Source: an uncultured Pseudomonadales bacterium (GTDB taxonomy: Bacteria; Patescibacteriota; Microgenomatia; UBA1400). Taken from it: a stretch of 64,000 nt of DNA. Both the position numbers and the translations under genes were made by a program. The notes beneath the pieces were generated by a model. That model had not been told where the DNA came from. It saw only the letters and a program-made list of their open reading frames with translations, and ran no database searches. Positions 20,287-64,000 of this stretch are shown piece by piece. The stretch covers positions 19,466 through 83,465 of the forward strand of contig CAZPUR010000002.1 in the NCBI GenBank assembly GCA_964589815.1. Reading direction: 5' to 3'. Numbering within the stretch: the stretch's first letter is position 1; every line of letters begins with the position of its first letter.

Positions 20287-20316
20287 AACAATGTAACAAT
20301 GAAGCAATGAAACAAT
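20287..20316. repeat. AACAATGR word array on the other flank of the same gene
   Basis: AACAATGTAACAATGAAGCAATGAAACAAT, same orientation as 19851-19907. Confidence 0.85.
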
Positions 20317-24131: not shown

Positions 24132-24214
24132 AATACCTCCTAAATATATAATAGTGGTAGTGAAAACATCATGTCAAGGGGTAAAAGATTATTGTTCCAT
24201 TGTTTCATGGTTTT

Positions 24215-24242
24215 CATCCAGAGGATGATCATCCTCTGGATG
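24215..24242. repeat. Perfect 28-bp palindrome flanked by inverted AACAATG word arrays (possible terminator)
   Basis: CATCCAGAGGATGATCATCCTCTGGATG; flanks ATTGTTCCATTGTTTCAT / AACAATGGAGCAATTG... Confidence 0.8.
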
Positions 24243-24299
24243 ACATTGTTAACAATGGAGCAATTGACCAATGAAGCAATGATGAAAATTTAGAAATTT

Positions 24300-45407: not shown

Positions 45408-47390
45408 ATGAAGAAAAATTGTTTCATTGTTTCATTGTTTCATTGTTTTCTCCTGTTTACTGTTTACTGTTTATGCCGGCGTTACGCCGTGCATCCCGTG
45501 CAGGCATTTGCCTCGCCGGGACTGTTTACTTCTTTCGCGTTCGCGAAAGATTACTCTTTTACCCAAGTCAACTTTTCCGTTCAAATTTATAGTGATGGTT
45601 CTTTTGAGGTTGAAGAGCAAAGAACTTATGATTTTGACGGTTCTTTTACTTGGGCTGACCGAACCATCCCCTTAAGAGATGATGAAATTGTTAATTTTCA
45701 GATAGAAGATGAGCACGGATTATACCTCCAAAATGACACGGAAGAACCTGGCACTTATCAGGTTTCTGTTGATAATAATCAACTTTATGCCAAATGGTTT
45801 TATTCTGCCTATAACCAACAAAAAACTTTCACCATTACCTATTTGGTTAAAGACGGGATTGACTTGCATCAGGATATTGCCGAGTTTTACTGGCAGTTAA
45901 TTGGCGATGAATGGGATAAAGGCGTCGGCCAAGTGACCGGAGTGATTAATCTGCCCGGTTCGGTAAAAGAGAATCAAATTTATTGTTTTGGCCACGGACC
46001 TTTAAATGGTAAAGTAGAAATTCCTAATGAATCGAGTTGTCAATTCAGCGCCAGCAACTTACCCAAAAACCAGTTTTTAGAAATCAGATTTTTATTTGAT
46101 AAGAATTTAATTACTAACTACTCCCTACGCAATACTAACTACTCGCTAGATGATATTTTGGCTGAAGAAAAAACATTTGCTCAACAAGCCGAGAGACAAA
46201 AAACTACGGCCCGCATCCTTACCATTGTTTTTGGTTTAATACCCCTGTTTAGTTTTGGTTTATTTAGTAAAGGTGTTTTCGCCTATTTTCGCGATTGGTG
46301 GCAGTATGGCAGGGATGAACCTTTGCCCCAAGTTAATTTAGCAGACAAATTGCATGAGCCACCCTCTGATCTTCCGCCGGCCATGGTAGATTCTCTTTTA
46401 AAAATGTCCAAAAATTTATCTCCTAAGGTTTTTTTAGCCACCATTCTTTCTTTGGTTTTAAAAAGATTAATCAAGATTAAATCCACTAAAAAAGTCAATA
46501 CTGGTCTTTTAGGCCAGACCACCTCTTACGATTATAGTTTAGTTAAAGAAAAACAAGGCGTCAGATTATTAGACTTCGAGGGGAGAATTTTCAGCTTTTT
46601 ATTTAATAAAGTAGCCCAGGGAAAAAGTGAAATTAGTTTTGATGAGATTAAAAAATATGCTCGTTCTCACAAAACCAGTGCCTACAATTTTTTCCAAGAC
46701 TTTCAAAAAAAGGTTTTCCAGCAAATCCTGGACCAAGGTTATTTAGAAAAACACAGTCATGAAAATGTGGCCACTTTAAAACGCAAAAACATCTGGTTAG
46801 GATTTGGTTTAATCGTGGTTAGTTTTATTATTAACTTTCCTTTAATGGTTGCTTTTCCTCAGGCGATAATTGGTTTTTTTAGTGCCATTTTCTTTTTCTT
46901 TTTCGCGACTTTCGTGTTAATAGTTTTAGTTATTTTTGCCTCTTTTGGCGAAAAAAGGTCAGCTAAAGGCAGAAAAGAAGCGGCTGGCTGGCTGGCTTTT
47001 AAAAATTGGTTAAAGGATTATTCAGTCACCAAGCATTATCCGGTTGACTCCCTTATTTTATGGGAAAAATATTTAGTTTACGGCACGGTTTTGGGTATTT
47101 CGGAAAAAGCCTTGGCCAGTTTACCGGTGAGCTTTAGTCAGGCTGATCAACAAATGGCCTTAGGTTATTATGGCGGTATTAGCTCTGGAACAGGGGCAGA
47201 CTTAGGTACCAGTATGGCTTCATTTTCTCAGGCAGTCAGTGGCATTTCTCAAGCAGTTTCTAGCCTAAGTAGTACTTTTTCTTCTTCTTATGGTGCTTCC
47301 GGAATTGGTTCTTCCGGTGGTTTTTCCGGCGGCGGCGGGGGAGGGGGAGGCGGAGGCGGAGGTGGAGGGGGAGGCGGAGGCGCCGGATGA
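45408..47390 (+). CDS. DUF2207-like membrane protein with poly-glycine C-terminal tail
   Basis: N-terminal domain YSDGSFEVEEQRTYDFDGSF, central TM cluster, C-terminus GGFSGGGGGGGGGGGGGGGGGGAG; N-terminal signal region built from ATTGTTTC words (45418-45449); start uncertain. Confidence 0.7.
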   Translation: MKKNCFIVSLFHCFLLFTVYCLCRRYAVHPVQAFASPGLFTSFAFAKDYSFTQVNFSVQIYSDGSFEVEEQRTYDFDGSFTWADRTIPLRDDEIVNFQIEDEHGLYLQNDTEEPGTYQVSVDNNQLYAKWFYSAYNQQKTFTITYLVKDGIDLHQDIAEFYWQLIGDEWDKGVGQVTGVINLPGSVKENQIYCFGHGPLNGKVEIPNESSCQFSASNLPKNQFLEIRFLFDKNLITNYSLRNTNYSLDDILAEEKTFAQQAERQKTTARILTIVFGLIPLFSFGLFSKGVFAYFRDWWQYGRDEPLPQVNLADKLHEPPSDLPPAMVDSLLKMSKNLSPKVFLATILSLVLKRLIKIKSTKKVNTGLLGQTTSYDYSLVKEKQGVRLLDFEGRIFSFLFNKVAQGKSEISFDEIKKYARSHKTSAYNFFQDFQKKVFQQILDQGYLEKHSHENVATLKRKNIWLGFGLIVVSFIINFPLMVAFPQAIIGFFSAIFFFFFATFVLIVLVIFASFGEKRSAKGRKEAAGWLAFKNWLKDYSVTKHYPVDSLILWEKYLVYGTVLGISEKALASLPVSFSQADQQMALGYYGGISSGTGADLGTSMASFSQAVSGISQAVSSLSSTFSSSYGASGIGSSGGFSGGGGGGGGGGGGGGGGGGAG

Positions 47391-48347: not shown

Positions 48348-48539
48348 ATGGAAATAAAGTTAGAGAAACCTCCACTTACTCCGGCGGGCAAAAGAGCTTT
48401 AGAAGCCGCCTTAGTTTTTATCCAAGAAGGCGATAACCCCTTTGTTTTTTTAGAAAAAAGCGGAGTTCCCCAACTTGCCGATCATTTAAGAGAGTTGGGC
48501 CAGGCATATCCGGAAATAGTTTCTGAATTAGTGAGTTAA
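48348..48539 (+). CDS. Orphan small protein (63 aa), leaderless-type
   Basis: TGaTATATT (48332-48340) ends 7 nt before ATG. Confidence 0.5.
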   Translation: MEIKLEKPPLTPAGKRALEAALVFIQEGDNPFVFLEKSGVPQLADHLRELGQAYPEIVSELVS

Positions 48540-48551
48540 AAGGAGAGTTCT

Positions 48552-48782
48552 ATGATTTTACCCGTTTCAGAACCTACACCAGAACAAATAATTCATCAAG
48601 ATGAAAAAGATTTTTGTGTTTTTGGTAGCGCAGGTCAAAATACTTTGGCCGTCTTTTGTAATAGATGTGGCCAATCAGAATTGTTTGAAATTCACCCTGG
48701 ATTTATAGAGGCAGAGATAGGTGTAGCCAATGTTTTGGCAGAAGTAGCTCATACCCACGCCTGTCCTGATTTATTTAAGTAA
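48552..48782 (+). CDS. Orphan small Cys/His protein (76 aa)
   Basis: AAGGAGAG SD; CNRC ... HTHAC possible metal site. Confidence 0.5.
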   Translation: MILPVSEPTPEQIIHQDEKDFCVFGSAGQNTLAVFCNRCGQSELFEIHPGFIEAEIGVANVLAEVAHTHACPDLFK

Positions 48783-48783
48783 A

Positions 48784-48981
48784 ATGGAACAAAATCTCAA
48801 ACCAGCGCCATTCATCCCAGAAGAACTACAAATAGATGGTAATGGAAAAGCTTTTGTGGGAATGTCTGAAGGTTCTGCGCAAATGGCTCTTTCAGCAGAA
48901 GAAACTTTGATTTCTTCGGATGATATTTTAAATGCCAATTTTGGTTTCCTGTTTCCTTTGCCTTGGTGGCAAGAGGCTTAA
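48784..48981 (+). CDS. Orphan small protein (65 aa); 54-nt convergent overlap with 48928-50310
   Basis: Start 2 nt after the previous stop. Confidence 0.4.
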   Translation: MEQNLKPAPFIPEELQIDGNGKAFVGMSEGSAQMALSAEETLISSDDILNANFGFLFPLPWWQEA

Positions 48982-50310
48982 AGCCAACACTGTACTTAGC
49001 ACCAACATCCCTTGTTGAATTGTTAACCAATAATGATCGAAACTTCCAAGCAAGAGAATAACAATAGTAAGTAGCCAGTAGTAAGTAGGGTGTAGGGGTT
49101 TTTCAGCCCTACGCAGTACGCAATACTCCCTACTCACTAATTTTAATATTAACCAGCCAAATCCCATTAAACCCACAATTCCCATTTCACTTAAGACTAA
49201 CAAAAAAATATTATGCACTGGCTGTAAAAATCTATAATTAGCCACCACTTGACCAAACTCTTCCATTCTGGGAACAAAATTATTTAATCCTACCCCAAAA
49301 ATAGGGGAGGATTGCCACATTTTCCAGGCAATTTTATTCAGTTCCATTCTCCGACTGAACGAACTTGCCTCCATTTTTCCTATTCCTCCTAAACCCCATA
49401 TAACCCCTAAAAGAATAATAGCCAGTAGTAAGTAGCCAGTAGTAAGTACCCAGTAGTAAGTAGGGCGTAGGGACTTATTTTTTCTACGCAGTACGCTACG
49501 TAATACGCAATACTTCCTACTTCCTACGTAATACGCCATACCCCCTATAAAACCTATCCATGCCGGAAAACTAAAGGTTAAGCCCAGAGTTGCCATTCCC
49601 AAAATTAAAGCAGAAATTACTACAATTGACCTGCGATCGCCATTGAATTGTAGTAATATTAAGAGGAGGCTGATGACTAAAAAACCGGCCAAAACATTGG
49701 AGTGAGGAAAGGTTCCCATAGGCAAGACCTTAATTTGGCCCAATAAACTGATTTTTTTAATGGCTAAAGTGCTGGTATTAAAGGGTTGTTCGCCCAGAAA
49801 CCAGTAGCCAAAAATCGAGCCTTGCTTTAACCATTGACCAATAGCCAAAACCGATTGCCAAATGACTGAAAGACTTAAAACCTTAATAAAAGTTTTATTT
49901 TTTCCCGCAGAGCGGGATCGTCCTTTGGACGAAATATAGTATATCAAAAGCCCGAATTCCAAAACCTTTATCCATTTATAAACTGCTACTGGCCGATTTT
50001 TAGCCAGCAAAATATTTAGTAGCAAGCAGGTAATAGTAAGTAGCCAGTAGAGTGTAGGGCGTAGGGATTTTTTCTTCCTATGCATTACGCTATGCAATAC
50101 GTAATACTCCCTATTTACTAATTTTTCCAGTAGCCACAGGCCCAACAAAGTTAAAATAAGTAGGTCGGTCAAGTAGATGGTAGGAATGAGGTAGTCTATA
50201 AGAATTCCATGCACATAGCTCCAATCTTGAGGCCAGTGTTTGGCTAAATTAGAGGGAATTAAAAAAACCAGAAGATAAAAAATAATTTGTTGAAGTTTTT
50301 TTAAGCCCAT
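48928..50310 (-). CDS. O-antigen ligase/polymerase (Wzy_C)-like membrane protein carrying three in-frame repeat insertions
   Basis: Polytopic; IFGVGLNNF motif; three paralogous segments REY[YC]VL...K(K)SLRPT[LY]YW[LV]LT. Confidence 0.7.
   Translation of the reverse strand: MGLKKLQQIIFYLLVFLIPSNLAKHWPQDWSYVHGILIDYLIPTIYLTDLLILTLLGLWLLEKLVNREYYVLHSVMHRKKKSLRPTLYWLLTITCLLLNILLAKNRPVAVYKWIKVLEFGLLIYYISSKGRSRSAGKNKTFIKVLSLSVIWQSVLAIGQWLKQGSIFGYWFLGEQPFNTSTLAIKKISLLGQIKVLPMGTFPHSNVLAGFLVISLLLILLQFNGDRRSIVVISALILGMATLGLTFSFPAWIGFIGGMAYYVGSRKYCVLRSVLRRKNKSLRPTYYWVLTTGYLLLAIILLGVIWGLGGIGKMEASSFSRRMELNKIAWKMWQSSPIFGVGLNNFVPRMEEFGQVVANYRFLQPVHNIFLLVLSEMGIVGLMGFGWLILKLVSREYCVLRRAEKPLHPTYYWLLTIVILLLGSFDHYWLTIQQGMLVLSTVLALSLLPPRQRKQETKIGI
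49063..49137. repeat. Palindromic AGTAAGTAG / CCCTACGC / TACTCCCTAC element, copy 1 inside the Wzy-like gene
   Basis: AGTAAGTAGGGTGTAGGGGTTTTTCAGCCCTACGCAGTACGCAATACTCCCTACT. Confidence 0.8.
49421..49540. repeat. Same element, copy 2 (longest)
   Basis: GCCAGTAGTAAGTAG... GTAGGGCGTAGGGACTTATTTTTTCTACGCAGTACGCTACGTAATACGCAATAC... Confidence 0.8.
50031..50120. repeat. Same element, copy 3
   Basis: TAATAGTAAGTAGCCAGTAGAGTGTAGGGCGTAGGGATTTTTTCTTCCTATGCATTACGC...TACTCCCTAT. Confidence 0.8.
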
Positions 50311-50381: not shown

Positions 50382-50642
50382 ATGGCAGGAGAACCAGAAT
50401 CACCAATTTCTTTTCTCAGAAATGACTCAGAAAATGAAACCGGTAAAGGACCGGCTAAGTCTTATTTAGTTTTACCTCTTCAGGAAAAACCAAGCCCTGA
50501 CATCCCTACTGCTTTTGCAGAGTTAGGCGGAACTTTGGAGCCGGAAAACAAAGGTGTTTCCCGTATTGGTCCTGTGGCTTCAAATAGTAGTAGCGCCCAG
50601 ATTTTACAATGGGGTAGAGAAAATAGTAATCAGAGGGGTTAA
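50382..50642 (+). CDS. Orphan small protein (86 aa), leaderless-type
   Basis: TGaTATATA (50367-50375) ends 6 nt before ATG. Confidence 0.45.
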   Translation: MAGEPESPISFLRNDSENETGKGPAKSYLVLPLQEKPSPDIPTAFAELGGTLEPENKGVSRIGPVASNSSSAQILQWGRENSNQRG

Positions 50643-50648
50643 ATTCCG

Positions 50649-50909
50649 ATGCCCAAAACTATCCAACCAGAAATTACAGGGCTTGTAGTTGAAGGCCCAC
50701 CACTTCATCCCCGGAGAGGAAGAGAATTGTCAGACACAAGAGTATTTCCTGTTTTAATGGATCAACGAAGAGTAAATTGGCCAAACCAAGGAGCAATGGT
50801 AGAATTAGTTCATCAAGTTTTAGATGAAGGCTTGGATTATAGCGATCCGGAAGCAGTCACAGCCGCCATTGAACGAGTCAGAGCCAAACCTCATCTGCCT
50901 GGTTTATAA
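50649..50909 (+). CDS. Orphan small protein (86 aa)
   Basis: GAGGGG SD inside the end of the previous ORF. Confidence 0.45.
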   Translation: MPKTIQPEITGLVVEGPPLHPRRGRELSDTRVFPVLMDQRRVNWPNQGAMVELVHQVLDEGLDYSDPEAVTAAIERVRAKPHLPGL

Positions 50910-50918
50910 AAGAATAAT

Positions 50919-51140
50919 ATGGCTAATCCAAAATCCATGAGAGAAATTGTTCAAGATTTAACTCCAGCAGAAGTTGCTGGTCTTCAGGGAGAAAATCCTC
51001 CAATAAGGATAATGCCTGAAAGAGTAGAGAATCGTTCTTATGTTTTAGGCGTTGATGTCCAAAGAGCAAGAGAAGTCTTGCAAGAACCAGTCATCGCTGA
51101 AGCAGTAAAACTAGGCGCCGTGATAACAAAGATCGGCTAA
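50919..51140 (+). CDS. Orphan small protein (73 aa)
   Basis: ORF in operon context. Confidence 0.4.
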   Translation: MANPKSMREIVQDLTPAEVAGLQGENPPIRIMPERVENRSYVLGVDVQRAREVLQEPVIAEAVKLGAVITKIG

Positions 51141-51216
51141 AAGAACTATAGGATTGTTTTTAGTATAAACTTCTGATATAATACCACTTTATTCTTGTTA
51201 ATTTTAATCAAATTTT

Positions 51217-51315
51217 ATGGGATTTAAAAATTGCTTGGAACGAACTCTTCAGACTATAGCCGGAGCGGACGCACCTCGAGGCGTAGGCGAACTTTTGTCA
51301 GCCCGCATTGAGTAA
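51217..51315 (+). CDS. Orphan mini-protein (32 aa)
   Basis: TGaTATAAT promoter at 51174-51182; stop TAA abuts ATG of next gene. Confidence 0.3.
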   Translation: MGFKNCLERTLQTIAGADAPRGVGELLSARIE

Positions 51316-51657
51316 ATGGCCGATGCTCATCATGATCCTGATGATAAAGGTATTTTTCTTATGGGGCATGATCAAACTTTAGCAGCCTTAACAGAAGAAG
51401 GTTTTCTTGAGAAAACAAAACATGTTGTAATTCAACCAGGTTCAGATCCAAAAGAAACATTATCATTTATGGAAGAAGTTTTAAGATTACACAAACCTGA
51501 TTCGATCTTTTTCCGCATACCTACAAGTCCTGAGACTTGTCATAGCTTTGCTGCCTTAAATGAAAGAGCTATAGCTGGAGCCATAAATGCTATTTCTGCA
51601 GTAGGCGGAGAGCTGGTTTTGATAGATTTTGCCCCAGACGAATTTTCTATTTATTAA
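51316..51657 (+). CDS. Orphan protein (113 aa)
   Basis: ORF only. Confidence 0.45.
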   Translation: MADAHHDPDDKGIFLMGHDQTLAALTEEGFLEKTKHVVIQPGSDPKETLSFMEEVLRLHKPDSIFFRIPTSPETCHSFAALNERAIAGAINAISAVGGELVLIDFAPDEFSIY

Positions 51658-54392: not shown

Positions 54393-56069
54393 ATGGACGC
54401 GAAGAAGGCGTTCAAAACGGCCACCTTCTTCCTGGTGGTCGGGGTATTGGTGGGGGCAGTTCTTTGGACTCGCCCTGTCTTTGCACAGGAGTCAACATCG
54501 ATAAATGAGAAGATTGCCAGCGAAGCGCGGTTGCTCATCGGCACAGCACCCTACGCGCCCGATCCAAGTGACTGCGGCCAGAACCCATGTTCTGGCTACT
54601 ACGTCTGTACTGATGTAGTCGCAGTCGCCACGGAAAGGGCTGGGGTGCCGATCGCCGAGGATTCGTGCGCCTGCAGTTTGATGAGGCGCGCGGAATACCA
54701 GCGCCAGTACTTCATGGGCGATTCAGTCCGTGGAGGAAATGATGCGCTTCGACGCCACTACGAGGCTGAGGGTTCAGCCGCTCCACCGGCCGCAGGCAAC
54801 ATCTTGCTCTACTCTGCTCACGTAGCAGTAGTAGTGGATGTTCGATCTGCGGGGGAGGGAAGGTTGGAACTTTGGACTGTTGAGGCCAACGGTGGCTCAG
54901 CCAGGGTGAACATCAACTCCCGGAAGTATGAGCTGGAAAAGCTCGGAGAGGGTTGGTATTTCATTTCTGGTCGCAATCATGACTCTATCTTCGGGTGGGG
55001 TGTGATTGATGAAACAGAGCCATTGGCACCAAGCAGTTCAGCTTCGCGCTGGCCTTACCCAGTGGAGCAAGCCCCAAAATCAAAAGGCGAATGGGGATGG
55101 GTTGGGCCAGCAGTAGCTGGGTTGACCATCATTGCCTTAATCTTGTTTTTCTTTGCCCTGGTTCCTCCAGGGTCAAGAATGGCAGCAATCAAGTTCATGG
55201 CCAAAAAAGCCTGGAAAGGCTTTAAATGGACTATGAACAAGACTTTGGAGCTGTGGGGGAAGCTGATGATCCTTCTCGAACCATCTGAGGAGGAAAAAAG
55301 ACGCTTCTACTGGCTCCAACATGGCCGAGGTCGAGGCGGCTGCCACTATTACTTTGTAGGCGCTTTCTGGGGAGCAATTCTTTGCTCCTGCGTTTTGGTT
55401 TTGATGGTAATCAGGTTACTGGTTTTAGGTGGCATGCCGTTGGAGAACCTGGTTGGTGGTCGTCAGACCTGGGTTGGCCGGGCCGTTTCTCGGGTGAGTG
55501 AGATCGACCCGGAAAATGTGGCCTACGGTTTGATCCCTGCTGATGAACAGAAGAAGTGGGATCAGGCTTTGCTGGAAACGTCGGCCCTGCCGACATTCCC
55601 GATTACTTACTGGACAGGGAGTGAAGTGAGTTTCCACTGTCCGGAAAGAATCTGGAGCGCAGCTAAGGCTGCGGCCAGCAAACACGGTTGCGATCCGCTC
55701 TTGGTTGTGGCGATAGGCCACTCAGAGGGACCGAGTTACAACCAAAATGCCATCTCGCGGGCTGGGGCCAAAGGAACCTGGCAATTCATGCCAGGCACCT
55801 GGGATTTATATTGGCCCCCAGGCCCGAGTCAACCCGGCCGGGAAAATGATTCGGCAGGAGCTGATGCTGCTTGCCGGATGGAGCTAGAACTGGAGTTGGA
55901 AGAACAAACTTCGGAGCTAGCTTTTGCCAGGCGGTTTAACGGGGCTGATGAAGGTCGGTGTTGGAACTGCGCTGACACGGATGGAGGCCCTGAAGATCCG
56001 GCTGTTCGCCAGGCCAAGTACGCTTGGAAGCTCTGGCAGCAGCTTCTCGCAGAAACAGGAGGTGAGTAG
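54393..56069 (+). CDS. Bifunctional peptidoglycan hydrolase: N-terminal CHAP/NlpC-P60-like amidase, two TM helices, C-terminal SLT lytic transglycosylase
   Basis: Signal/anchor; CHAP-like triad context GYYVCTDVV ... GNILLYSAHVAVVVDV ... WTVEANGG; TMs VGPAVAGLTIIALILFFFALV and YYFVGAFWGAILCSCVLVLMVIRLLVLG; SLT motifs AIGHSEG...AGAKGTWQFMPGTW; AAGGAGG SD. Confidence 0.8.
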   Translation: MDAKKAFKTATFFLVVGVLVGAVLWTRPVFAQESTSINEKIASEARLLIGTAPYAPDPSDCGQNPCSGYYVCTDVVAVATERAGVPIAEDSCACSLMRRAEYQRQYFMGDSVRGGNDALRRHYEAEGSAAPPAAGNILLYSAHVAVVVDVRSAGEGRLELWTVEANGGSARVNINSRKYELEKLGEGWYFISGRNHDSIFGWGVIDETEPLAPSSSASRWPYPVEQAPKSKGEWGWVGPAVAGLTIIALILFFFALVPPGSRMAAIKFMAKKAWKGFKWTMNKTLELWGKLMILLEPSEEEKRRFYWLQHGRGRGGCHYYFVGAFWGAILCSCVLVLMVIRLLVLGGMPLENLVGGRQTWVGRAVSRVSEIDPENVAYGLIPADEQKKWDQALLETSALPTFPITYWTGSEVSFHCPERIWSAAKAAASKHGCDPLLVVAIGHSEGPSYNQNAISRAGAKGTWQFMPGTWDLYWPPGPSQPGRENDSAGADAACRMELELELEEQTSELAFARRFNGADEGRCWNCADTDGGPEDPAVRQAKYAWKLWQQLLAETGGE

Positions 56070-56129
56070 GGAAAAGTTTAGGTTAGTGGAAGACTTTTAA
56101 AATCAGGACATGAAACGGAGGCAAAAGAA

Positions 56130-57158
56130 ATGTTTCAGTGGATTATCATGATGTTGCCGTTTTTGTTGGCTCTGGTGGCCGGTGCTGCGGGCTTCTGGAT
56201 GCTCAAGAACGGTTTGGGAGCCAAGAACGCTCTCAAGGTAATCGGTGGCGGTATAGTCGGCGTCGTTGCCGTTGCCTTTTTAGGGATAAGACTATTGGAC
56301 TTTGCAATTGGGCAGTTTGAGAAAGACTTGCCTGAAAGCAAAACCATGGCCTACCTAGAGAAAGGACTGGCGACGGAGTTTGACTATGCGGCCTACAGCG
56401 AAACGGGTGAAGGTGTAGGCATTGGTCCGCCCTGGAGTCAGCCTGTTCAATCTGACGCCGGTGTGCCACCTGCCGTACCTGCTGCAACGCCCGTTGCTGG
56501 CGTACCTGCGGCCACACCAATTCCGGTTTATCCGGCACAGGTCGAAGCCGCGCCCGAGCTGCAAAAGGAGCTACTGCCCGAAGGACCGCAGCGAGTGCAG
56601 TGCCTGGTTGATGCCCTTCTGGGCGCCAGCATCGGCAATGCGCAGAGCGGCTCAACTACGTGGTTTCCGCGTGGGACGATCTGGAATCTGAGAGTGAAAC
56701 GTGGTGTCGGTTTTTTCTATAAGAACCGGCACTGGGTTTCGTCTCCGGCGTTGGGTATTACGCAGGAGATCCAGATTGGCTACGGCTTGGGCAGACAGCT
56801 CGACAAGGCCAGCTCTGATACGGACGGCATCTTTTACGGCACGGGGGAATGGCCTCCCTCTTGCTACGTTGCGGTGACATCGCCGCCACCGACTGTTGTG
56901 CTTCCGCCTGACACTGGCTCGAGCACTCCGCCCGTCGACACCGGCCCTTGCACCAATGCAGAGCTCCTCCCCGGAGAGGAAAGCCAATACTGGTTGAAAA
57001 ATACCAGCGATGGCTCCTTTACCTGGGTGGAAGGGGGCTTGCCAGAGGCAACCTTTCGGACCACAGACGGACGGCAGGTGTCTGTCTGGGGGTGGCTCTG
57101 TAGGACTGAGCTGCAGTACGGCGTTGACCCGACCTACGAAGTCTGGGTTTTGCCGTAA
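56130..57158 (+). CDS. Membrane protein (2 N-terminal TM helices, Pro/Ala-rich linker, Cys-containing C-terminal domain), unknown family
   Basis: GGAGG SD; hydrophobic N-terminus; PPAVPAATPVAGVPAATPIPVYP linker. Confidence 0.65.
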   Translation: MFQWIIMMLPFLLALVAGAAGFWMLKNGLGAKNALKVIGGGIVGVVAVAFLGIRLLDFAIGQFEKDLPESKTMAYLEKGLATEFDYAAYSETGEGVGIGPPWSQPVQSDAGVPPAVPAATPVAGVPAATPIPVYPAQVEAAPELQKELLPEGPQRVQCLVDALLGASIGNAQSGSTTWFPRGTIWNLRVKRGVGFFYKNRHWVSSPALGITQEIQIGYGLGRQLDKASSDTDGIFYGTGEWPPSCYVAVTSPPPTVVLPPDTGSSTPPVDTGPCTNAELLPGEESQYWLKNTSDGSFTWVEGGLPEATFRTTDGRQVSVWGWLCRTELQYGVDPTYEVWVLP

Positions 57159-57175
57159 GGCTAGGAGGCCAGAAG

Positions 57176-57256
57176 ATGGCCTACCTAGTCAGATCTCCAC
57201 CCGACCCGCCGATTCGGGCAAATCTGTTGTCAGTTACCTTACATATAAACAGGTAA
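57176..57256 (+). CDS. Possible 26-codon Pro-rich leader ORF (MAYLVRSPPDPPIRANLLSVTLHINR)
   Basis: AGGAGG (57163-57168) 7 nt upstream of ATG; ORF runs into the 5' arm and inner stem of the 57203-57297 hairpin. Confidence 0.3.
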   Translation: MAYLVRSPPDPPIRANLLSVTLHINR

Positions 57257-57297
57257 CTGTTCCAAGGCTGGACAGAGCAAGTTCGAATCGGCGGGTC
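57203..57297 (+). other. 95-nt nested hairpin element (ncRNA, attenuator or recombination site; unknown)
   Basis: Outer 13-bp perfect stem GACCCGCCGATTC (57203-57215)/GAATCGGCGGGTC (57285-57297); inner 9-bp stem CAGTTACCT (57231-57239)/AGGTAACTG (57251-57259). Confidence 0.7.
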
Positions 57298-57530
57298 AAC
57301 CGGAGGTTCTTTTGTTTGCGAGCAATTCTTCCGCATCTGGCGGAAGGCTGCACGCGGCATAGCTTAAAATCTTTTTTTCTCTCATGCTTGAGAGAAAGTT
57401 TATAAAAGGTTTTAGGTTTATGTTGTGTGCAGTATTTGGTTGTTGTCCGATGTGTATCGGGCCTGAAGAGCTTAAAAAAGCGAAACAACTTAAAGTCAGT
57501 TTATTATTAATATGTTTTGAAAGGAAAAAA

Positions 57531-58613
57531 ATGCCTAGATCAGAATTGCCAGGACTATTAGGCCAAACTCTTTTAGAGCAGGGGATAGAAGGAAAGAAGG
57601 AGACTTCTTCTATTAGTACTGAAGGGATTGAAGTAGGCAAACCAGTCGGCTTAGGTAATGTTTTTAGAGTAAATAAGGCAGAGAAGGCAGGGTTGGCTTT
57701 AACTACCACTAATAGTGAAACTGGGAGAAGGCAAGTAATTGCTCGTATTCCTCCGGGGACTCAGGGTAAGGTGAGTCGTAGAAATGAGACAGTTTATGCT
57801 CAGGTTGGCCCTATTTTTGCTCAGATCAGAACTGAAGCTGGAGCAAGACGAGTAAAAGAAGGAGAGAATTTAGTCAGAAGGAGACAAAAGGTTCAAAGAG
57901 GTCAATCTTTAGCTGATCAAGCCTTAATTGCTCAACAAGAGATTGAATCAGCCCGGATCTATCGCAAGGCAGCTGAGCAAGATCGGTCTGAACATTTCCA
58001 AGCGCAACAAGCGATGGCTGATTTACAGTTAACTCATTCACTTAGAGAGGGAAATGGAAAAGGCAAGGGACTTTTAAGATTATTAGGTGATGGCTTAACT
58101 GATGTAGCTGTAGCTGCTTTATCAGGTGAGCCTAGGGCTGGAGGCGAAACAGCTGTCCTTGATTTTAATAGAGGGAGTATGCAAGTTAATGCCCCTACGC
58201 GAAGATCCGGGCAAACTAATGTTTCAGTAGCAAAAATAGTTGATGGCACTTTTAGACCTGAGGTGACTCTTGATCCTTTGTCTCGAGCAGTTAATAGGGT
58301 TAGAGGTTTGCTTGGAAAAAAACCAGTGGCTGTTTTGGGTGTTGGTGTTATTCGCTGGCGTCATACTTTAAGTCAGGAAATAGTTGGGGGCGAAGTTCAC
58401 AAAGAGCCTTTAGACGTTTTTGCTCAGCTTAATCAAGGCATTGAAGCTTTAAGAGTACTTAGTAGAGAGTCTTTACTCATAGAAGGAGTGCCTACTTTTG
58501 CTGATTTAGGCTTAGATGGACCAGAATTAGAAGCCCAGTCTGGAACAGAACCACATGAACCTCAGACCAAAGAACAAATTAGAGCGTTATTAAGAAAAGG
58601 AGAACAAAAATAG
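57531..58613 (+). CDS. Orphan soluble protein (360 aa), first gene of the ten-gene operon
   Basis: GAAAGGAAAAAA before ATG 57531; ORF is open from 57384, alternative start 57420 would add MLCAVFGCCPMCIG...; coiled-coil-like central region. Confidence 0.6.
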   Translation: MPRSELPGLLGQTLLEQGIEGKKETSSISTEGIEVGKPVGLGNVFRVNKAEKAGLALTTTNSETGRRQVIARIPPGTQGKVSRRNETVYAQVGPIFAQIRTEAGARRVKEGENLVRRRQKVQRGQSLADQALIAQQEIESARIYRKAAEQDRSEHFQAQQAMADLQLTHSLREGNGKGKGLLRLLGDGLTDVAVAALSGEPRAGGETAVLDFNRGSMQVNAPTRRSGQTNVSVAKIVDGTFRPEVTLDPLSRAVNRVRGLLGKKPVAVLGVGVIRWRHTLSQEIVGGEVHKEPLDVFAQLNQGIEALRVLSRESLLIEGVPTFADLGLDGPELEAQSGTEPHEPQTKEQIRALLRKGEQK

Positions 58614-58701
58614 CCATGAGTAAGTGTATTTATAAATAATATTATAGGTTTGACATATTTAATATATTTAGTATAATAAATTTGTCTGAAAGGAAATATA
58701 T

Positions 58702-59811
58702 ATGAAGAGTGAAATTCCTAATATCGTCACCGGTGAACCAGCTTTTGATTCAGTAGGAGCTGAGTCTGAAGCAGTTACTCCAAGATCTGGTTTGGTTGGT
58801 AGCGTTGAAAGCATTTTAGATAATACAAAACAAGCTTTAGGTATAGGCGAGGAAATTCCAGGAGCTGTTACTGATAGGCGTTCCAGAGAGGTCTTAAAAA
58901 AATTAGCTGAGGATCAACCTGAGAGACTTGATCTTCGTGTTTTTAGGGAAGAGGTGGGAACTGGTATTTTTGGACTAAGAAGGAAAAAAGAGGCAGTCAG
59001 GCCAAGAGCTAGGGTTATAGATTCAAGCAATGCTTCATCAATGGTTGATGAGCAGGGAAATGATGCTAGACCTACGGGCAGAGGTAAAATTTTACGTCCA
59101 GGCGAAAGAATGGGTCTTTTGGTAAGAAATAGTGGAAAAGAAATAGCTCCAGGGGATGCTAGATTCCCTAAAAGTTCAGAACAAACAGCAGAAAGCAAAC
59201 GCTTAAAAGAATACTTAGATAGAAAGCATCCTGATAGTGATACCCGTAAGGGCTATATGAGGAGGGTTGCCGATGTAGCACAAATAACTCAGGCGAGACA
59301 GGCTAATATAGAAGTGGCTTTAAGCGAAGAAGAAAAAGTATGGGAAGGACAGCAAGTCAGGACTCAGCTAAACAGCAATCCCATAAAATTGGAAACCACA
59401 GGGATAAGTGGACTTCTCAAAGTCATTGTAGGAGGTGGGACCTGGGGAAATTCTGTTGAAGTGGGAGGAATTTATCACAATTGGACGATTCCCATGGGAA
59501 GACAAAATAAGATACCGATTAGACATGAAACAATTGCTGGCGGTAGTATTTTTTACAGCTCTGATCCACCAAAGTGGTTTGATCTAATTAATACCATATT
59601 AAAGCGAGCCACTCGTGGGAAGAAGGCTCTCGAAGCCCCCATTGGTAGAGTTACTTTGAAAACCTCAACAGGCGCAGCTATTGGTTCAGTAACAGTAGCT
59701 CATCCAGAGAAGGTAGTTCTTCAATTAACTGACCTTGCCGTGAAAGCGAGCAATACTAATGTTCAACCCAGACCTATTCCTGAACCGATAAAACCAGGAG
59801 ATTTAATCTAA
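58702..59811 (+). CDS. Orphan soluble protein (369 aa)
   Basis: GAAAGGAAA SD; no TM, no nucleotide-binding motif. Confidence 0.6.
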   Translation: MKSEIPNIVTGEPAFDSVGAESEAVTPRSGLVGSVESILDNTKQALGIGEEIPGAVTDRRSREVLKKLAEDQPERLDLRVFREEVGTGIFGLRRKKEAVRPRARVIDSSNASSMVDEQGNDARPTGRGKILRPGERMGLLVRNSGKEIAPGDARFPKSSEQTAESKRLKEYLDRKHPDSDTRKGYMRRVADVAQITQARQANIEVALSEEEKVWEGQQVRTQLNSNPIKLETTGISGLLKVIVGGGTWGNSVEVGGIYHNWTIPMGRQNKIPIRHETIAGGSIFYSSDPPKWFDLINTILKRATRGKKALEAPIGRVTLKTSTGAAIGSVTVAHPEKVVLQLTDLAVKASNTNVQPRPIPEPIKPGDLI

Positions 59812-60113
59812 TGGAGAATTTAATAAAACATTTTGGACGAGGTATTTATCATTTAACAGAAGACAGTTTAAGTTTTGCCAAGCGGGGCAAGGCAGTTCGA
59901 CAGGGTAGAGTTCATCCAAAAATAGCATTTGATATGATAGTGGAGGATGCTGTTGGGCCCATGCCTCTTTTAGTCCGAACAGAATCTTGTCTTGCTGGCT
60001 TCCTAGGAGTACCAGATTGTATGGGAAAGATTTTAGGACGTGAACGTATCTCTACGGAAGAAGCATTGACACATGTAAGAGAGATTTTTGGACTTTCAGA
60101 ACAAGAGGTTTAG
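59811..60113 (+). CDS. Orphan protein (100 aa)
   Basis: TAATG overlap with previous gene. Confidence 0.55.
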   Translation: MENLIKHFGRGIYHLTEDSLSFAKRGKAVRQGRVHPKIAFDMIVEDAVGPMPLLVRTESCLAGFLGVPDCMGKILGRERISTEEALTHVREIFGLSEQEV

Positions 60114-60137
60114 TGTTAAAATAAAACCAAGGAAAAA

Positions 60138-60404
60138 ATGGCTCAAGAGCAGGTTTACACTGCTGCCCAAATTCGAGAAGCTAATGCAGATCAGTTAGCA
60201 GGAATTATGGTTAGGGCCGCTGGTTTTGATACTGGTGACTGGAGTCTTTGGGGTTTGGGTCTTGAGGCTCTGACCAGGGGAGGAGTAGACTTAATATCAA
60301 GACTTGGAGGAGACCGAGCAATTGACCAGTTAAGGCAAGCAGTTTCTGGGGAATTAAGAGAATTAGATTTGATCGAAGAACCACCCATACTCCAACCTGT
60401 TTAA
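60138..60404 (+). CDS. Orphan protein (88 aa)
   Basis: AAGGAAAAA SD. Confidence 0.5.
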   Translation: MAQEQVYTAAQIREANADQLAGIMVRAAGFDTGDWSLWGLGLEALTRGGVDLISRLGGDRAIDQLRQAVSGELRELDLIEEPPILQPV

Positions 60405-60415
60405 TTAAAAAACAT

Positions 60416-60631
60416 ATGTCAGAAAAATTATCAGTGCCAGAAAACGTTACTTTATTAGAAGCAGCTGCTATTGCCGCTGCCCGTTATCCTGATAAAGCTT
60501 TGTTTGGAGAATTGCCGGAGGGACGTATAATAGTAAGTGTAGAGGAAGTTATTAGAATGTCACAAAGTGACTCAGGGTTTAGATTAGCTCTTGAAGAATG
60601 CGCTCAACAAGGAGGCTTGCCCGAGAGATAA
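60416..60631 (+). CDS. Orphan protein (71 aa)
   Basis: ORF in operon context. Confidence 0.45.
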   Translation: MSEKLSVPENVTLLEAAAIAAARYPDKALFGELPEGRIIVSVEEVIRMSQSDSGFRLALEECAQQGGLPER

Positions 60632-60645
60632 AAAGGAAAAACGAA

Positions 60646-61155
60646 ATGGAAAAAGCACCCGTTTTTGACCATAGACAAGTAACAGCAAAAACAAGAACTT
60701 TAGTTGCAAGTGGAATGATTGGGCCAGAACAGGTTTTTGGCGAAGCTGATACACCTTCAGAAAGAAGTTTAGCCGTACTTTTAGGAGAAGATTTTCGTCT
60801 TTCAAGAGAAGATGTTGAAGGCTCCCTGGATGTTTATGACACAAGAAGAGTATTAATTGAGGTTCGTTTAAATGAAGCCACCGGTCAATTATCTCATCTT
60901 CGTTATCAACCAGGTTTTGATTCAAGGACAGGCAGGGTGCTCTCTGAACTTCAAGATCTTCCCGGGGCAGATTTATATAAACATAATCCGGACGCAGCCG
61001 AAGCCACCCGTACTTTAAGAACCCAAAAAAAACACTTTTCTTCTACGGCCCATCCTTTTGATGAGGCTAAAACAGTTAGACAAAGAGGTGGCGACCCAGA
61101 TTATAGAATTCCCAAACCTCCATCCAGTTTTTTACTTCAGGAAGAAAGAAAATAA
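60646..61155 (+). CDS. Orphan protein (169 aa)
   Basis: AAAGGAAAAA SD before ATG 60646; track start 60598 overlaps the previous gene. Confidence 0.5.
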   Translation: MEKAPVFDHRQVTAKTRTLVASGMIGPEQVFGEADTPSERSLAVLLGEDFRLSREDVEGSLDVYDTRRVLIEVRLNEATGQLSHLRYQPGFDSRTGRVLSELQDLPGADLYKHNPDAAEATRTLRTQKKHFSSTAHPFDEAKTVRQRGGDPDYRIPKPPSSFLLQEERK

Positions 61156-61194
61156 TTTTAATTTCACTTATTTTATGATAAAATCAGGGCTGTT

Positions 61195-61494
61195 ATGGCA
61201 AAAGATTTAGCTTGGTTAAATAGAGGTTTTGCAAGTGGAGGATTAACTCCCGAAGAGGCAGTGGCTAAATTAATGACTAAGGGAGAATTGGATTTATCAC
61301 AAATCTCCCGACCTGATTTAATTACCCGATTAAATACAGCTTTTGAGTCAGGGAATCTAGAACCAGATCAGGCAGTAGCACATTTGATAATTGAAGAAAG
61401 TTTTTTAGCCAGTAGAATGGAGCCAGAGCGTGCTCTTAAGATGCAACCTAATTTAACTGGTCAGATGGTTGAAGTTTTAGGTTTGGAATTATAA
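61195..61494 (+). CDS. Orphan protein (99 aa) with internal duplication
   Basis: GFASGGLTPEEAVAKL / AFESGNLEPDQAVAHL repeat; TGaTAAAAT promoter 10 nt upstream. Confidence 0.5.
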   Translation: MAKDLAWLNRGFASGGLTPEEAVAKLMTKGELDLSQISRPDLITRLNTAFESGNLEPDQAVAHLIIEESFLASRMEPERALKMQPNLTGQMVEVLGLEL

Positions 61495-61496
61495 AA

Positions 61497-61697
61497 ATGG
61501 AGTTAAAAAAAACTAGATATACCACCCCTACTGCGGTCCAAGAGGCAATTAATGCCCACCTAACTGAAGAAGCAGGAGCATTATTGAACGAATCATTAAT
61601 CTGGCTTCAGGCATCAGAACATCTTACTCCGGCAGGAGCAGAATCTTTGTTAGAGATTGCCGGTCAGGCAGCTGATTTACAGCGACGTTTACGGTAA
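61497..61697 (+). CDS. Orphan protein (66 aa)
   Basis: Starts 2 nt after the previous stop. Confidence 0.45.
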   Translation: MELKKTRYTTPTAVQEAINAHLTEEAGALLNESLIWLQASEHLTPAGAESLLEIAGQAADLQRRLR

Positions 61698-61739
61698 GAA
61701 TTTTAAATACCTTATAACGTTGATAGAGACGCCTTTTAT

Positions 61740-62033
61740 TTAAACAAAGGACCAGCCACATTCTATATCAGGAAAGAGTTTTCTAGGGTTTTCAACCGGA
61801 GCTTCTGTGCAAGATTTTATCTGACCGTGAATATCACGACGTCCTTTATGGTCCAGATGTTCACAAGGGTGAACGTGGATAATTGCTTTGCCTGTTTCTG
61901 TTTCCAAGACAATTTCTGGATTTTGAAATAACCCTAACTCCTCTACGCCCACAGGAACAAAAGCATCCTGGCAGCATTGGCCGCCACAGCCAGAGCAAGG
62001 ACTATCTTTAAAACTTACCTCAAAGTTTGTCAT
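61740..62033 (-). CDS. YkgJ-type Cys-cluster (zinc/iron-chelating, CxxCxxCC) protein
   Basis: SPCSGCGGQCCQDAF motif plus downstream Cys/His. Confidence 0.6.
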   Translation of the reverse strand: MTNFEVSFKDSPCSGCGGQCCQDAFVPVGVEELGLFQNPEIVLETETGKAIIHVHPCEHLDHKGRRDIHGQIKSCTEAPVENPRKLFPDIECGWSFV

Positions 62034-62108
62034 AACAATTAATTAATTTTCTTATTTAGCTATTTTACTTCTTTTTTTATATTTTTCAAGATATGATACA
62101 ATATCTTC

Positions 62109-63413
62109 ATGAACTTTAAGCCTCAAATTAAAACTTTAAGCAATGGCCTGCGTTTAATTACCCTTAACTTACCTCAATCTCCATCAGTGACCGCTCTATT
62201 AATGGTTAAAGTTGGCTCCCGTTATGAAAAAGAAAAATTGGCAGGCATTTCCCATTTTTTAGAACATATGGTTTTCAAGGGCACTAAAAAATATCCCACC
62301 TCGTTTGACTTAACCTCAACCGTAGACGCCATTGGCGCCGAATTCAATGCTTTCACCACTAAAGAATACACTGGTTTTTATGTTAAGTCTGCGGTTCAAC
62401 ATCTTGATTTAGCCTTGGACGTTTTGTCCCAGTTGGTGTTTCAACCGCTCCTGCCGGAAAAAGAAATGCAAAAAGAAAAAGGGGTGATTATTGAAGAAAT
62501 CAATATGTATGAGGATAATCCTATGGTTAAAGTAGGCATAGATTTTGAGATACTTTTGTATCCTGATAGCCGTTTGGGCTGCCCGACCATTGGCTATAAA
62601 AAATCAGTTAAAGCCATGAAACGCAGCAACTTTTTAAATTATCTTGGCCAATATTACCGGCCCAAAAATATGATTTTAGGGATTGTGGGAGGAATGAAAA
62701 AAGTGCAAAGTGCAAACCTGCCTGCCGGCAAGGCAGGGTGCAAAGTGCAAAATTTTAATCTGAATAAAGGACCTACGATTGTGGATCGATTATTCGAACT
62801 TCAACCAGTTAAATTTATCCAGCAAAAGCCTGCCTTACAGTTTAAATATAAAAAAACTAACCAAACCCATTTTTGTTTAGGAGTTAGAGCCTTACCCCAC
62901 GGTCATAAAGACCGTTACGTGATGGCGGTTTTATCCACTATTTTAGGCGGCAATATGAGTTCCAGACTATTTATGGAAGTCAGAGAAAAAAGAGGTTTGG
63001 CTTATTATATCAGAAGTTCAATCAACACTTATTTTGATCATGGTTATTTTATGACTCAGGCAGGCACAGATGTTAATAAGGCGGGAGAGGCGATAAAAGT
63101 GATTTTAAATGAACTACGCAATACGCATTACTCCCTACGTTCTAGTGAATTAAAACGAGCCAAGGAATACCTTAAGGGGAAGTTGGCTTTGAGTTTGGAA
63201 GACTCCCAAGAAATTGCCAGTCTTTTGGTGGAAGACTTTTTATTGGAAGATAAAATTAGAACTCCTAAAGAGATTATTGAGGGAATAGAAAAGGTGAGCT
63301 TGAGTGATATTAAAAGAGTTGCCCGACAAATTTTTGTTAATCAAGGCCTGAATTTAGCCATCATCGGACCATATAAAGACGAAACTAGATTTGCAAAGAT
63401 ATTGAAAATATAG
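62109..63413 (+). CDS. M16 family zinc metallopeptidase (catalytic, HxxEH)
   Basis: GISHFLEHMVFKGT; leaderless-type promoter TGaTACAAT ends 6 nt before ATG; in-frame inserts 62701-62752 and about 63111-63140. Confidence 0.88.
   Translation: MNFKPQIKTLSNGLRLITLNLPQSPSVTALLMVKVGSRYEKEKLAGISHFLEHMVFKGTKKYPTSFDLTSTVDAIGAEFNAFTTKEYTGFYVKSAVQHLDLALDVLSQLVFQPLLPEKEMQKEKGVIIEEINMYEDNPMVKVGIDFEILLYPDSRLGCPTIGYKKSVKAMKRSNFLNYLGQYYRPKNMILGIVGGMKKVQSANLPAGKAGCKVQNFNLNKGPTIVDRLFELQPVKFIQQKPALQFKYKKTNQTHFCLGVRALPHGHKDRYVMAVLSTILGGNMSSRLFMEVREKRGLAYYIRSSINTYFDHGYFMTQAGTDVNKAGEAIKVILNELRNTHYSLRSSELKRAKEYLKGKLALSLEDSQEIASLLVEDFLLEDKIRTPKEIIEGIEKVSLSDIKRVARQIFVNQGLNLAIIGPYKDETRFAKILKI
62717..62737. repeat. 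GC-rich palindrome CCTGCCTGCCGGCAAGGCAGG flanked by AAGTGCA words, in frame in the M16 gene
   Basis: Flanks AAGTGCAAAGTGCAAA (62701-62716) and GTGCAAAGTGCAAAA (62738-62752); reads VQSANLPAGKAGCKVQ. Confidence 0.9.
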
Positions 63414-63452
63414 GGAGTATTGCGTATCGCGTAGGGTAAACCCTACACCCTA
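63411..63452. repeat. TAGGGAGTA / TGCGTAT / CCCTACACCCT element, left flank of the four-helix-bundle gene
   Basis: TAGGGAGTATTGCGTATCGCGTAGGGTAAACCCTACACCCTA. Confidence 0.85.
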
Positions 63453-63456
63453 ATTT

Positions 63457-63810
63457 ATGTATAAAAAACTAACCGTTTGGCAGCGTTCGATGCAGTTAAT
63501 CGTTGCCGTTTACCAATTAACTAGCAAGCTTCCTACTTCAGAACAATATGGCTTATCTTCACAAATGAGAAGAGCAGCTATTTCGATTCCTTCTAATATT
63601 GCTGAGGGGTATAGAAGGAAAAGTAGGAAAGACTATCTAAGATTTTTATCTATTGCTAATGGTTCTGCTTCTGAGTTAGAAACCCAGGTAGAGATAATTA
63701 AGGTCTTGCCTAAAATGAAAAACCTTGATACAGTAAAAGTAGAGAATTTACTAAACGAAGTTTTAAAAATGTTAAATGTAATGATTAGAAAATTAGGGAG
63801 TAGGGAGTAG
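63457..63810 (+). CDS. Four-helix-bundle protein (23S rRNA intervening-sequence protein family)
   Basis: LTVWQRSMQL...YGLSSQMRRAAISIPSNIAEGYRRKSRKDYLRFLSIANGSASELETQ. Confidence 0.9.
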   Translation: MYKKLTVWQRSMQLIVAVYQLTSKLPTSEQYGLSSQMRRAAISIPSNIAEGYRRKSRKDYLRFLSIANGSASELETQVEIIKVLPKMKNLDTVKVENLLNEVLKMLNVMIRKLGSRE

Positions 63811-63896
63811 CTTTATAGTGAGTAGGGAGTAATGCGTATTGCGTATTGCGTAGGAAGAGAAACCCTACACCCTACTAACTACTGACTACACCCTAG
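63795..63896. repeat. Same element family, right flank of the four-helix-bundle gene (direct orientation)
   Basis: ...GTAGGGAGTAATGCGTATTGCGTATTGCGTAGGAAGAGAAACCCTACACCCTAC... Confidence 0.85.
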
Positions 63897-63902
63897 AGAA
63901 TT

Positions 63903-64000
63903 ATGGCAAAACTTCAACGTTCAGTCGTTTTAGTCAAACCCGATGCCTTACAAAGAGGCCTGGTGGGTGAAATCATTTCCCGCTTTGAACGTAAAGGCTT
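63903..64000 (+). CDS. ndk: Nucleoside diphosphate kinase, 5' part (runs off the window)
   Basis: [32 protein letters not shown] matches the NDK N-terminus. Confidence 0.85.

Follow-up and report, generated by a model that had tools for sequence, protein, structure and literature searches.

A four-helix-bundle gene between heptamer palindromes in a Microgenomatia genome: a probable intervening-sequence-type cassette outside rRNA

The subject of this study is a 64,000-nt stretch of DNA from an uncultured bacterium of the Microgenomatia (contig CAZPUR010000002.1, positions 19,466 to 83,465 of the forward strand; hereafter the window) and, within it, a small gene at 63457-63810 whose product belongs to the four-helix-bundle (FHB) family known from intervening sequences (IVSs) of 23S rRNA genes. 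We conclude that this gene is probably part of an IVS-type cassette lying outside rRNA, that is, a small FHB gene carried with arms of tandem 7-base units. Across phyla, the usual layout of FHB loci is a pair of inverted heptamer arms, and the direct copies seen in the window are a minority variant or local peculiarity; moreover, judged against the sequences of related genomes, the gene and its repeat frame behave as a cassette inserted between a gene for an M16 (insulinase-type) peptidase and ndk, the gene for nucleoside diphosphate kinase. IVSs encoding FHB proteins (S23p) occur in the 23S rRNA genes of Leptospira, Coxiella, Xanthomonas and Brucella. The family (PF05635/TIGR02436) is very large, with at least 8000 scored matches in our homolog search, and to our knowledge it has had no function assigned to it since its discovery in rRNA intervening sequences around 1990. 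The coordinates of all features are collected in Table 1.

The 354-bp gene had been assigned to the FHB family in a preliminary description of the window, and profile searches bear this out. Its product scores 129.4 bits against TIGR02436 (cutoff 24; residues 7-113) and 130.4 bits against PF05635 (cutoff 33.8), full-domain scores above the curated cutoff in both cases; the nearest solved structure is XCC0516 (2gsc; E 9.8e-27, residues 2-113), a pentameric four-helix bundle of which the protein is, by sequence match, a relative. The ratio of nonsynonymous to synonymous divergence (dN/dS) is 0.10 between the window gene and its homolog in locus L087 (see below), from which we infer that purifying selection acts on the protein, and the sequence of the locus is identical across three independent assemblies. 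A PADLOC scan gave no defence-system match. The final 17 nt of the open reading frame (ORF; 63794-63810) are the heptamers TAGGGAG TAGGGAG TAG, which form the C-terminal tail and the stop codon, the third unit placing its TAG in frame. Three units of the TAGGGAG type do therefore terminate the ORF; nevertheless, provision of stops in all three frames was rejected as the reason for TAG heptamers, because an 8-mer family found in the window and some units without TAG do not fit it.

The only Pfam match of the protein besides PF05635 is a sub-threshold one to bAvd. That it could be an Avd accessory factor of a diversity-generating retroelement (DGR) draws on weak matches to NF033474 (25.2 bits), PF22296 (20 bits) and phrog_3206 (E 7e-4), but none of the three scores comes near the cutoffs (80 and 40 bits), the neighbours are the M16 gene and ndk, and repeat finding limited to 62000-64000 shows no long repeat pair of the template/variable type. 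We regard this identity as extremely improbable, and rejected it on the score against the NF033474 Avd equivalog (cutoff 80) and on the genes of the 13-kb locus L001, which record no reverse transcriptase domain.

The gene is bracketed by two palindromic elements, P1 upstream and P2 downstream, both made up of period-7 units. The preliminary description had them as same-orientation copies, each with a hairpin of its own, and on both counts it was right: P1 (63411-63452) and P2 (63822-63896) share a 23-nt stretch that is 91% identical and a 15-nt stretch that is 100% identical, and, folded singly, P2 forms a strong hairpin (-41.1 kcal/mol, z -5.36) and P1 a weak one (-16.1 kcal/mol, z -1.96). 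A 17-nt word of the left part matches the window seven times, against 0.00 expected, and a 14-nt word of the right part also seven times, against 0.60 expected; no Rfam family matches the elements. Folding of the region 63400-63905 (-132.1 kcal/mol, z -4.08) predicts a 16-bp stem, 63441-63456 with 63790-63805, that encloses the FHB ORF, and an outer pairing of 63411-15 with 63891-95, found in both the minimum free energy (MFE) and the centroid fold, that would close the whole insert. In this predicted structure the termini are thus complementary and stem-forming, as those of an IVS are.

For a view of the family as a whole, we used 80 loci with relatives of the window FHB protein, drawn from species-representative genomes and spanning lineages of the candidate phyla radiation (CPR), Omnitrophota, Bacteroidota, Clostridia, Proteobacteria, Acidobacteriota, Planctomycetota and others; no rRNA signature motif was found in any of the 80. 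For 78 FHB genes and 343 other genes of the same loci, the upstream 80 nt were locally aligned to the downstream 80 nt in reverse complement. Inverted heptamer arrays around the FHB genes are evident to the eye as well as in the scores. The median of this inverted flank score was 14 for the FHB genes and 7 for the controls, and 72% of the FHB genes exceeded the control 95th percentile (Mann-Whitney p 2e-23), whereas the direct-repeat score was not raised, only 9% of the FHB loci exceeding the corresponding percentile. Pairing the upstream flank of one locus with the downstream flank of another gave a median of 7, less than own-flank pairing, and the self-identity of the flanks at a lag of 7 nt was 0.40, as compared to 0.30 in controls. 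Of 79 loci, 46 have a clear heptamer array upstream and 46 have one downstream (34 have both), and the downstream unit is the reverse complement of the upstream one (TAGGGAG/CTCCCTA, TAGGCAA/TTGCCTA, TAGCGTA/TACGCTA, AGAGGCG/CGCCTCT); 35 of the 46 upstream units contain TAG. The polarity relative to the gene is fixed: upstream, the GC skew is +0.41 and 73 of 78 loci have a positive value; downstream, it is -0.33, with 71 of 78 negative. In Calothrix, a cultured cyanobacterium, a plasmid FHB gene is preceded by TTAGCTG arrays and followed by AGCTAAA arrays. In four genomes (that of the window, L008, L022 and L061), two FHB genes are present and their units differ. Further cognate arrays lie within the 8-kb loci themselves: 25 were counted, distributed over 18 of the 55 loci, as against an expectation of 3.6 based on non-cognate units, and many are gene-less palindromes of left arm, loop and right arm (three in L020; others in L015, L035, L009, L040 and L027). 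Complementary flanks are the rule in the family, and the direct-copy layout noted in the preliminary description is a minority variant. The outermost arms of the window locus do keep the family rule, being of the TAG type on the left (63411-63437) and of the CTA type on the right (63862-63896). In a Clostridiales locus (L046, ~1930-2460), about 60 nt with TAGGCAG arrays and adjoining sequence are present as a direct duplicate on both sides of the FHB gene, resembling the window layout.

The repeat also occurs apart from the gene: at least eight gene-less copies or half-copies of the P1/P2 element are found elsewhere in the window, some within coding sequences. Three are full palindromes in a gene for an O-antigen-ligase-like (Wzy_C) membrane protein, where they are translated in frame as VSREYCVLRRAEKPLHPTYYWLLT-like segments; in the alignment with the L004 ortholog, two of the three show as net insertions, and the third falls in a segment that varies. 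Another, a half-element within the M16 coding sequence, includes 24 nt with 100% complementarity to 63822-63845 and falls where the protein alignment is variable. Such places without an FHB gene, and a second family, of 8-mers, that is likewise scattered in the window, would be accounted for if REP- or MITE-like repeats (repetitive extragenic palindromes or miniature inverted-repeat transposable elements), dispersed genome-wide, pile up in any spacer, the FHB gene being an ordinary resident with no functional link to them. We find this unlikely because, over FHB loci from many phyla, complementary heptamer arrays are far commoner than at the neighbouring control genes, because their polarity is fixed and their units differ between paralogs of one genome, and because relatives that lack the gene have no repeats at the M16-ndk site. 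Words of the family occur at ten or more sites in the 64-kb window; in ~46 kb from FHB-less relatives there are none.

Insertion is shown by comparison of the site itself. In five related lineages (L003, L004, L005/L006, L101/L102 and L103), M16 and ndk are adjacent, separated by a spacer of 26-58 nt that carries GGAGG and no repeats; besides the window, two other lineages (L087 and L088-L091) have the site filled with an FHB gene. The cassette reading put forward in the preliminary description is supported by these empty and filled sites. The L087 gene is 90% identical to that of the window in amino acids and 88% in nucleotides, and stands between two full palindromes. In L088-L091 (Microgenomates RIFCSPLOWO2_01_FULL_46_13), the FHB protein is 66% identical to that of the window and the arms are simple and inverted (TAGGCAG TAGTTCG TAGAACG TAGGCAG ... 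CTACTGC CTACGAG CTACTCC CTACGAA); here the M16 stop falls within the heptamer array, and in the window the M16 stop, TAG (63411-63413), is the first triplet of P1. The junctions of the cassette are the edges of the repeat arms, outside the flanking genes. The GGAGG ribosome-binding site of ndk is gone in all three filled lineages (window 63897-63907; L087 600-613; L088 3390-3406) and kept in all seven empty or gene-less loci compared; in L087, the words CCTAGAAATTT-ATG stand before both the FHB gene and ndk. An intermediate state is present in L105/L106, where the spacer holds a small gene-less palindrome of TAG heptamers (TAGAATT units facing CTAAATT). A metagenome scan with the M16 protein returned nine distant loci (25-44% identity), in none of which M16 was followed by ndk or an FHB gene.

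By its host flanks, L087 is nearest to the empty L004 (M16 3' end, 95.7% nucleotide identity, dS 0.09; ndk, 87.7%, dS 0.42). Between the window and L087, dS is 2.9 for ndk, 0.96 for the M16 3' end and 0.54 for the FHB gene, values taken over about 70-75 synonymous sites, L087 being a 930-nt contig at 1.5x coverage. Because the FHB value lies below those of the neighbouring genes, the comparison indicates that the FHB gene moved horizontally to the same site, more recently than the housekeeping genes of the hosts diverged. An old, vertically inherited M16-FHB-ndk operon, from which the FHB gene was lost several times and in which the repeats are a slippage-prone spacer, would agree with the occurrence of the gene at the same site in the distant Microgenomates L088 (M16 45%, ndk 69% and FHB 66% identical). 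Yet in five of eight lineages the gene is absent and the spacer tight and intact, the nearest relative of L087 is empty, and the FHB dS is about five-fold below that of ndk. We hold vertical inheritance to be very unlikely, and rejected the plain-operon reading on the empty spacers, the empty L004 and the low FHB dS. As a separate observation on this spacer, L104 (3796-3960) and L105/L106 (3796-3842) have an identical M16 protein (P0136) and differ by an unrelated insert of ~118 nt, which has inverted repeats of its own and in L104 takes the place of the right arm of the small heptamer palindrome; the M16-ndk spacer looks like a hotspot for small insertions.

A scheme in keeping with these data would run as follows. 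A cassette with an upstream arm that is G-rich and contains TAG (TAGGGAG-like) and a downstream arm that is its reverse complement (CTCCCTA-like), and whose arms can pair around the gene because they are reverse-complementary, would have landed in the very short M16-ndk spacer of a Microgenomates-like CPR bacterium, replacing the spacer together with the ndk ribosome-binding site. Each arm in the window would then have grown into a full left-arm/loop/right-arm palindrome, which is why the preliminary description saw two direct copies, and the gene-less palindromes elsewhere would resemble short non-autonomous derivatives beside an autonomous element. No terminator was found after the P1 or the P2 hairpin, and a scan for promoters and terminators, compared with shuffled sequences, gave no excess between M16, FHB and ndk; the three genes are therefore likely to be co-transcribed. 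In the M16-FHB-ndk transcript, the arms would pair and RNase III would cut the double-stranded stem, uncoupling the insert from its neighbours without harm to either. The FHB protein, a relative of the Avd pentamer, may recognise its own repeat arrays and aid the persistence or spread of the element, a proposal made by analogy because Avd binds nucleic acid and a partner enzyme.

Several observations weigh against the cassette scheme. The window locus itself departs from the family rule, with an inverted flank score of 7 and a direct score of 22, because each of its arms is a complete palindrome, and the second, distant FHB gene of the window (19912-20307) is framed by 8-mer arrays that are direct and not inverted. 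Protein distance and heptamer sequence are only weakly correlated (Mantel test, r 0.147, p 0.005), so that we make no claim of co-evolution. The small base of the L087 comparison counts here as well, as do the searches for a mobility apparatus: no clear target-site duplication is recognisable between the empty L004 and the filled L087, in which the spacer is replaced, and no recombinase, transposase or reverse transcriptase was found in the 13-kb locus L001. Cleavage of the arm stem by RNase III would follow by analogy with rRNA intervening sequences. Finally, mismatches in the pairing of the arms show no excess of sense-strand G:U (38) over A:C (46; p 0.45), a difference that is not significant at three stringencies, so that the complementarity could be a feature of the DNA, for example of terminal inverted repeats or of hairpins in single-stranded DNA.

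This last point also speaks for a transposon-like alternative, in which the arms serve, at the level of DNA, as terminal inverted repeats, the palindromes without the gene derive from the element as miniature forms and RNA pairing is a by-product; the FHB protein would bind the subterminal heptamers and recruit a host or unlinked enzyme for movement, acting as RAYTs (REP-associated tyrosine transposases) do for REPINs. Inverted arms are found family-wide. The M16-ndk site, where the gene has been gained and lost and the dS values disagree, the cognate gene-less palindromes near FHB genes and the paralog-specific units would all agree with this alternative. Against it, the protein is a 117-residue helix bundle without a catalytic domain, neither a transposase nor a recombinase is encoded in the 13-kb locus, and the spacer was replaced between L004 and L087 without a recognisable target-site duplication; the strong polarity of the arms relative to the ORF and the established cleavage of rRNA IVSs by RNase III (PMC4990558) both favour a role in RNA. 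We think this alternative rather unlikely.

Comparison with known systems places the window cassette, which we continue to view as of the IVS type, between two of them. In the Coxiella IVS, tandem heptamers precede the S23p ATG, a 28-bp terminal stem surrounds the ORF and the first repeat is where RNase III cleaves (PMC4990558); rRNA insertions of CPR bacteria carry the same protein family (10.1101/2024.02.27.582315), and FHB genes also occur inside cas loci (PMC3936711). With rRNA IVSs the window cassette has in common the protein family, an ORF within complementary termini predicted to form a stem, adjoining tandem heptamers as in Coxiella and a patchy distribution in relatives. It differs in lying outside rRNA, in an operon-like spacer between protein-coding genes (no rRNA is present in the window, in which Rfam finds one tRNA only), in having arms that are complete palindromes, and in its dispersed gene-less copies, some of them in frame in coding sequences. 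The parallel drawn in the preliminary description thus holds for the predicted enclosing stem, for the complementary flanks across the 80 loci and for the heptamers, and fails on location. As in RAYT/REPIN systems, the gene lies between inverted repeats, the cognate palindromes that flank it are also dispersed without it, and paralogs have different cognate repeats; in contrast to these systems, the protein is not a Y1 (HUH) transposase and the repeats are tandem 7-mers, not a single REP hairpin. By analogy, then, the cassette would work like an IVS and resemble RAYT/REPIN in population structure, but it lacks the defining trait of either, being outside rRNA and without a Y1 transposase. Avd of DGRs shares the fold superfamily (pentameric four-helix bundle), but the FHB protein is below the equivalog cutoff and no reverse transcriptase is encoded nearby. 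Rickettsia palindromic elements and in-frame MITEs are similar in that gene-less palindromes stand in frame in coding genes, in variable loops; the elements of the window differ in consisting of tandem heptamers, in being linked to an FHB-carrying, master-like copy and in belonging to another phylum. An integron gene cassette was also considered and rejected, since the 13-kb locus has no integrase domain and heptamer arrays, placed on either side of the ORF, make up the palindromes.

A further likeness is to free-standing heptamers. Xanthomonas and Nostoc are both FHB-rich genera. Both also have over-represented heptamers, GGGAATC in Xanthomonas and GGGGAYT in Nostoc, which are mostly intergenic and G-rich on one strand, and for which the function is unknown and G-quadruplexes have been proposed (PMC4692102). 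These, and the short tandemly repeated repetitive (STRR) sequences of cyanobacteria, are similar to the window arrays by repeat type only, as short tandem G-rich heptamers, and the study in question draws no link to FHB genes (PMC4692102). It is possible, and we suggest it tentatively, that FHB (PF05635) proteins are the trans-acting partners of a very widespread and hitherto unrecognised class of mobile heptamer palindromes, each paralog maintaining or spreading its cognate arrays as RAYTs do for REPINs; rRNA IVSs would then be the special case that landed in rRNA, and the bacterial heptamer excess a footprint of the class. If gene and arms do form one unit that spawns gene-less palindromes, this would draw together three questions: the nature of intervening sequences, the occurrence of small FHB genes amid genes unrelated to them, as in cas operons (PMC3936711), and the over-representation of heptamer repeats in bacteria (PMC4692102). 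Those who annotate CPR genomes are also alerted to short palindromic insertions that can lie in frame within essential genes. The protein family, rRNA IVSs with stem-forming ends, the Coxiella heptamers, the scattered FHB genes (PMC3936711) and the Xanthomonas/Nostoc heptamer excess (PMC4692102) are already known. Apart from the heptamers of the Coxiella IVS, we found no literature in which non-rRNA FHB genes are tied either to heptamer arrays in inverted orientation or to cognate palindromes without a gene, in a search of incomplete coverage that leaves room for an earlier description.

Table 1. Positions of the FHB gene, its flanking elements, neighbouring genes and related features in the window
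Feature	Position	Strand	Basis or remark
FHB gene (23S rRNA intervening-sequence protein family)	63457-63810	+	ORF, 117 aa; PF05635 and TIGR02436
P1, upstream palindromic heptamer element	63411-63452	+	TAGGGAGTATTGCGTATCGCGTAGGGT-AAA-CCCTACACCCTA
P1 left arm	63411-63437	+	TAGGGAG TATTGCG TATCGCG TAGGGT; followed by loop AAA
P1 right arm	63441-63452	+	CCCTACACCCTA
P2, downstream palindromic heptamer element	63822-63896	+	GTAGGGAGTAATGCGTATTGCGTATTGCGTAG-GAAGAGAA-ACCCTACACCCTAC...CCCTAG
P2 left arm	63822-63853	+	GTAGGGA GTAATGC GTATTGC GTATTGC GTAG
P2 loop	63854-63861	+	GAAGAGAA
P2 right arm	63862-63896	+	ACCCTACACCCTACTAACTACTGACTACACCCTAG
Predicted long-range stem, 5' strand	63441-63456	+	CCCTACACCCTAATTT; pairs with 63790-63805 in MFE and centroid fold; 94% complementary
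Predicted long-range stem, 3' strand	63790-63805	+	AAATTAGGGAGTAGGG; runs into heptamers 63794-63810
M16 (insulinase-type) peptidase gene, upstream neighbour	62109-63413	+	ORF; PF00675 and PF05193; homologs
ndk start, downstream neighbour	63905-64000	+	full gene at L001 10286-10759, PF00334
Gene-less array, right-arm type	385-418	+	same element family
Gene-less copy or half-copy	1905-1930		word search
Gene-less array, right-arm type	43672-43715	+	inside ORF 42229-43983
Gene-less array, right-arm type	46108-46143	+	inside ORF 45408-47390
Gene-less full palindrome, in frame in Wzy_C gene (48928-50310)	49087-49132	-	11-residue insertion relative to L004 ortholog; hairpin z -3.81
Second gene-less full palindrome, in frame in Wzy_C gene	49460-49547	-	insertion relative to L004 ortholog
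Third gene-less full palindrome, in frame in Wzy_C gene	50056-50113	-	hairpin z -2.85
Half-element, left-arm type, within M16 coding sequence	63114-63138	-	variable protein loop
Second, distant FHB gene	19912-20307	-	phmmer E 2e-6; PF05635 75 bits
8-mer arrays framing second FHB gene	19853-19907 and 20287-20316		CATTGTTN; direct orientation

The 8-mers that frame the second FHB gene belong to the family scattered in the window. Its units (CATTGTTN / AACAATGN) form arrays at 536-574, 10328-10358, 24191-24282, 42469-42506, 43866-43897 and 45418-45448, several of them inside ORFs; at 24191-24282 the pair is inverted, around another hairpin. Three blocks of ORFs in the window (54393-62033, 48348-48981 and 50382-51657) have no family match, the only hints being a weak SLT lytic-transglycosylase match and a CxxCxxCC match. 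They separate genes that are direct neighbours in related genomes (Metallophos-Wzy-M16-ndk in L004; an M16 paralog, a 75-aa gene and M16 in L005), and could be an integrated element or a phage remnant. The G+C content is 0.51-0.52 at 54-58 kb and about 0.41 at 58-62 kb, against about 0.38 in the surroundings. Tandem repeats of other kinds are also present. A 64-nt unit is repeated 2.5 times with 93% identity (Tandem Repeats Finder score 280) at 5167-5327, between ORF 4102-5196 and ORF 5331-6311; an ORF of 2999 aa (9518-18517, minus strand) contains perfect short tandem arrays, the 8-mer one at 10328-10358 and arrays of 7-mers at 10717-10746 and 10970-11003; and a hexamer array, (CGGAGG)n with 9.3 copies, lies at 47327-47382, at the 3' end of ORF 45408-47390.

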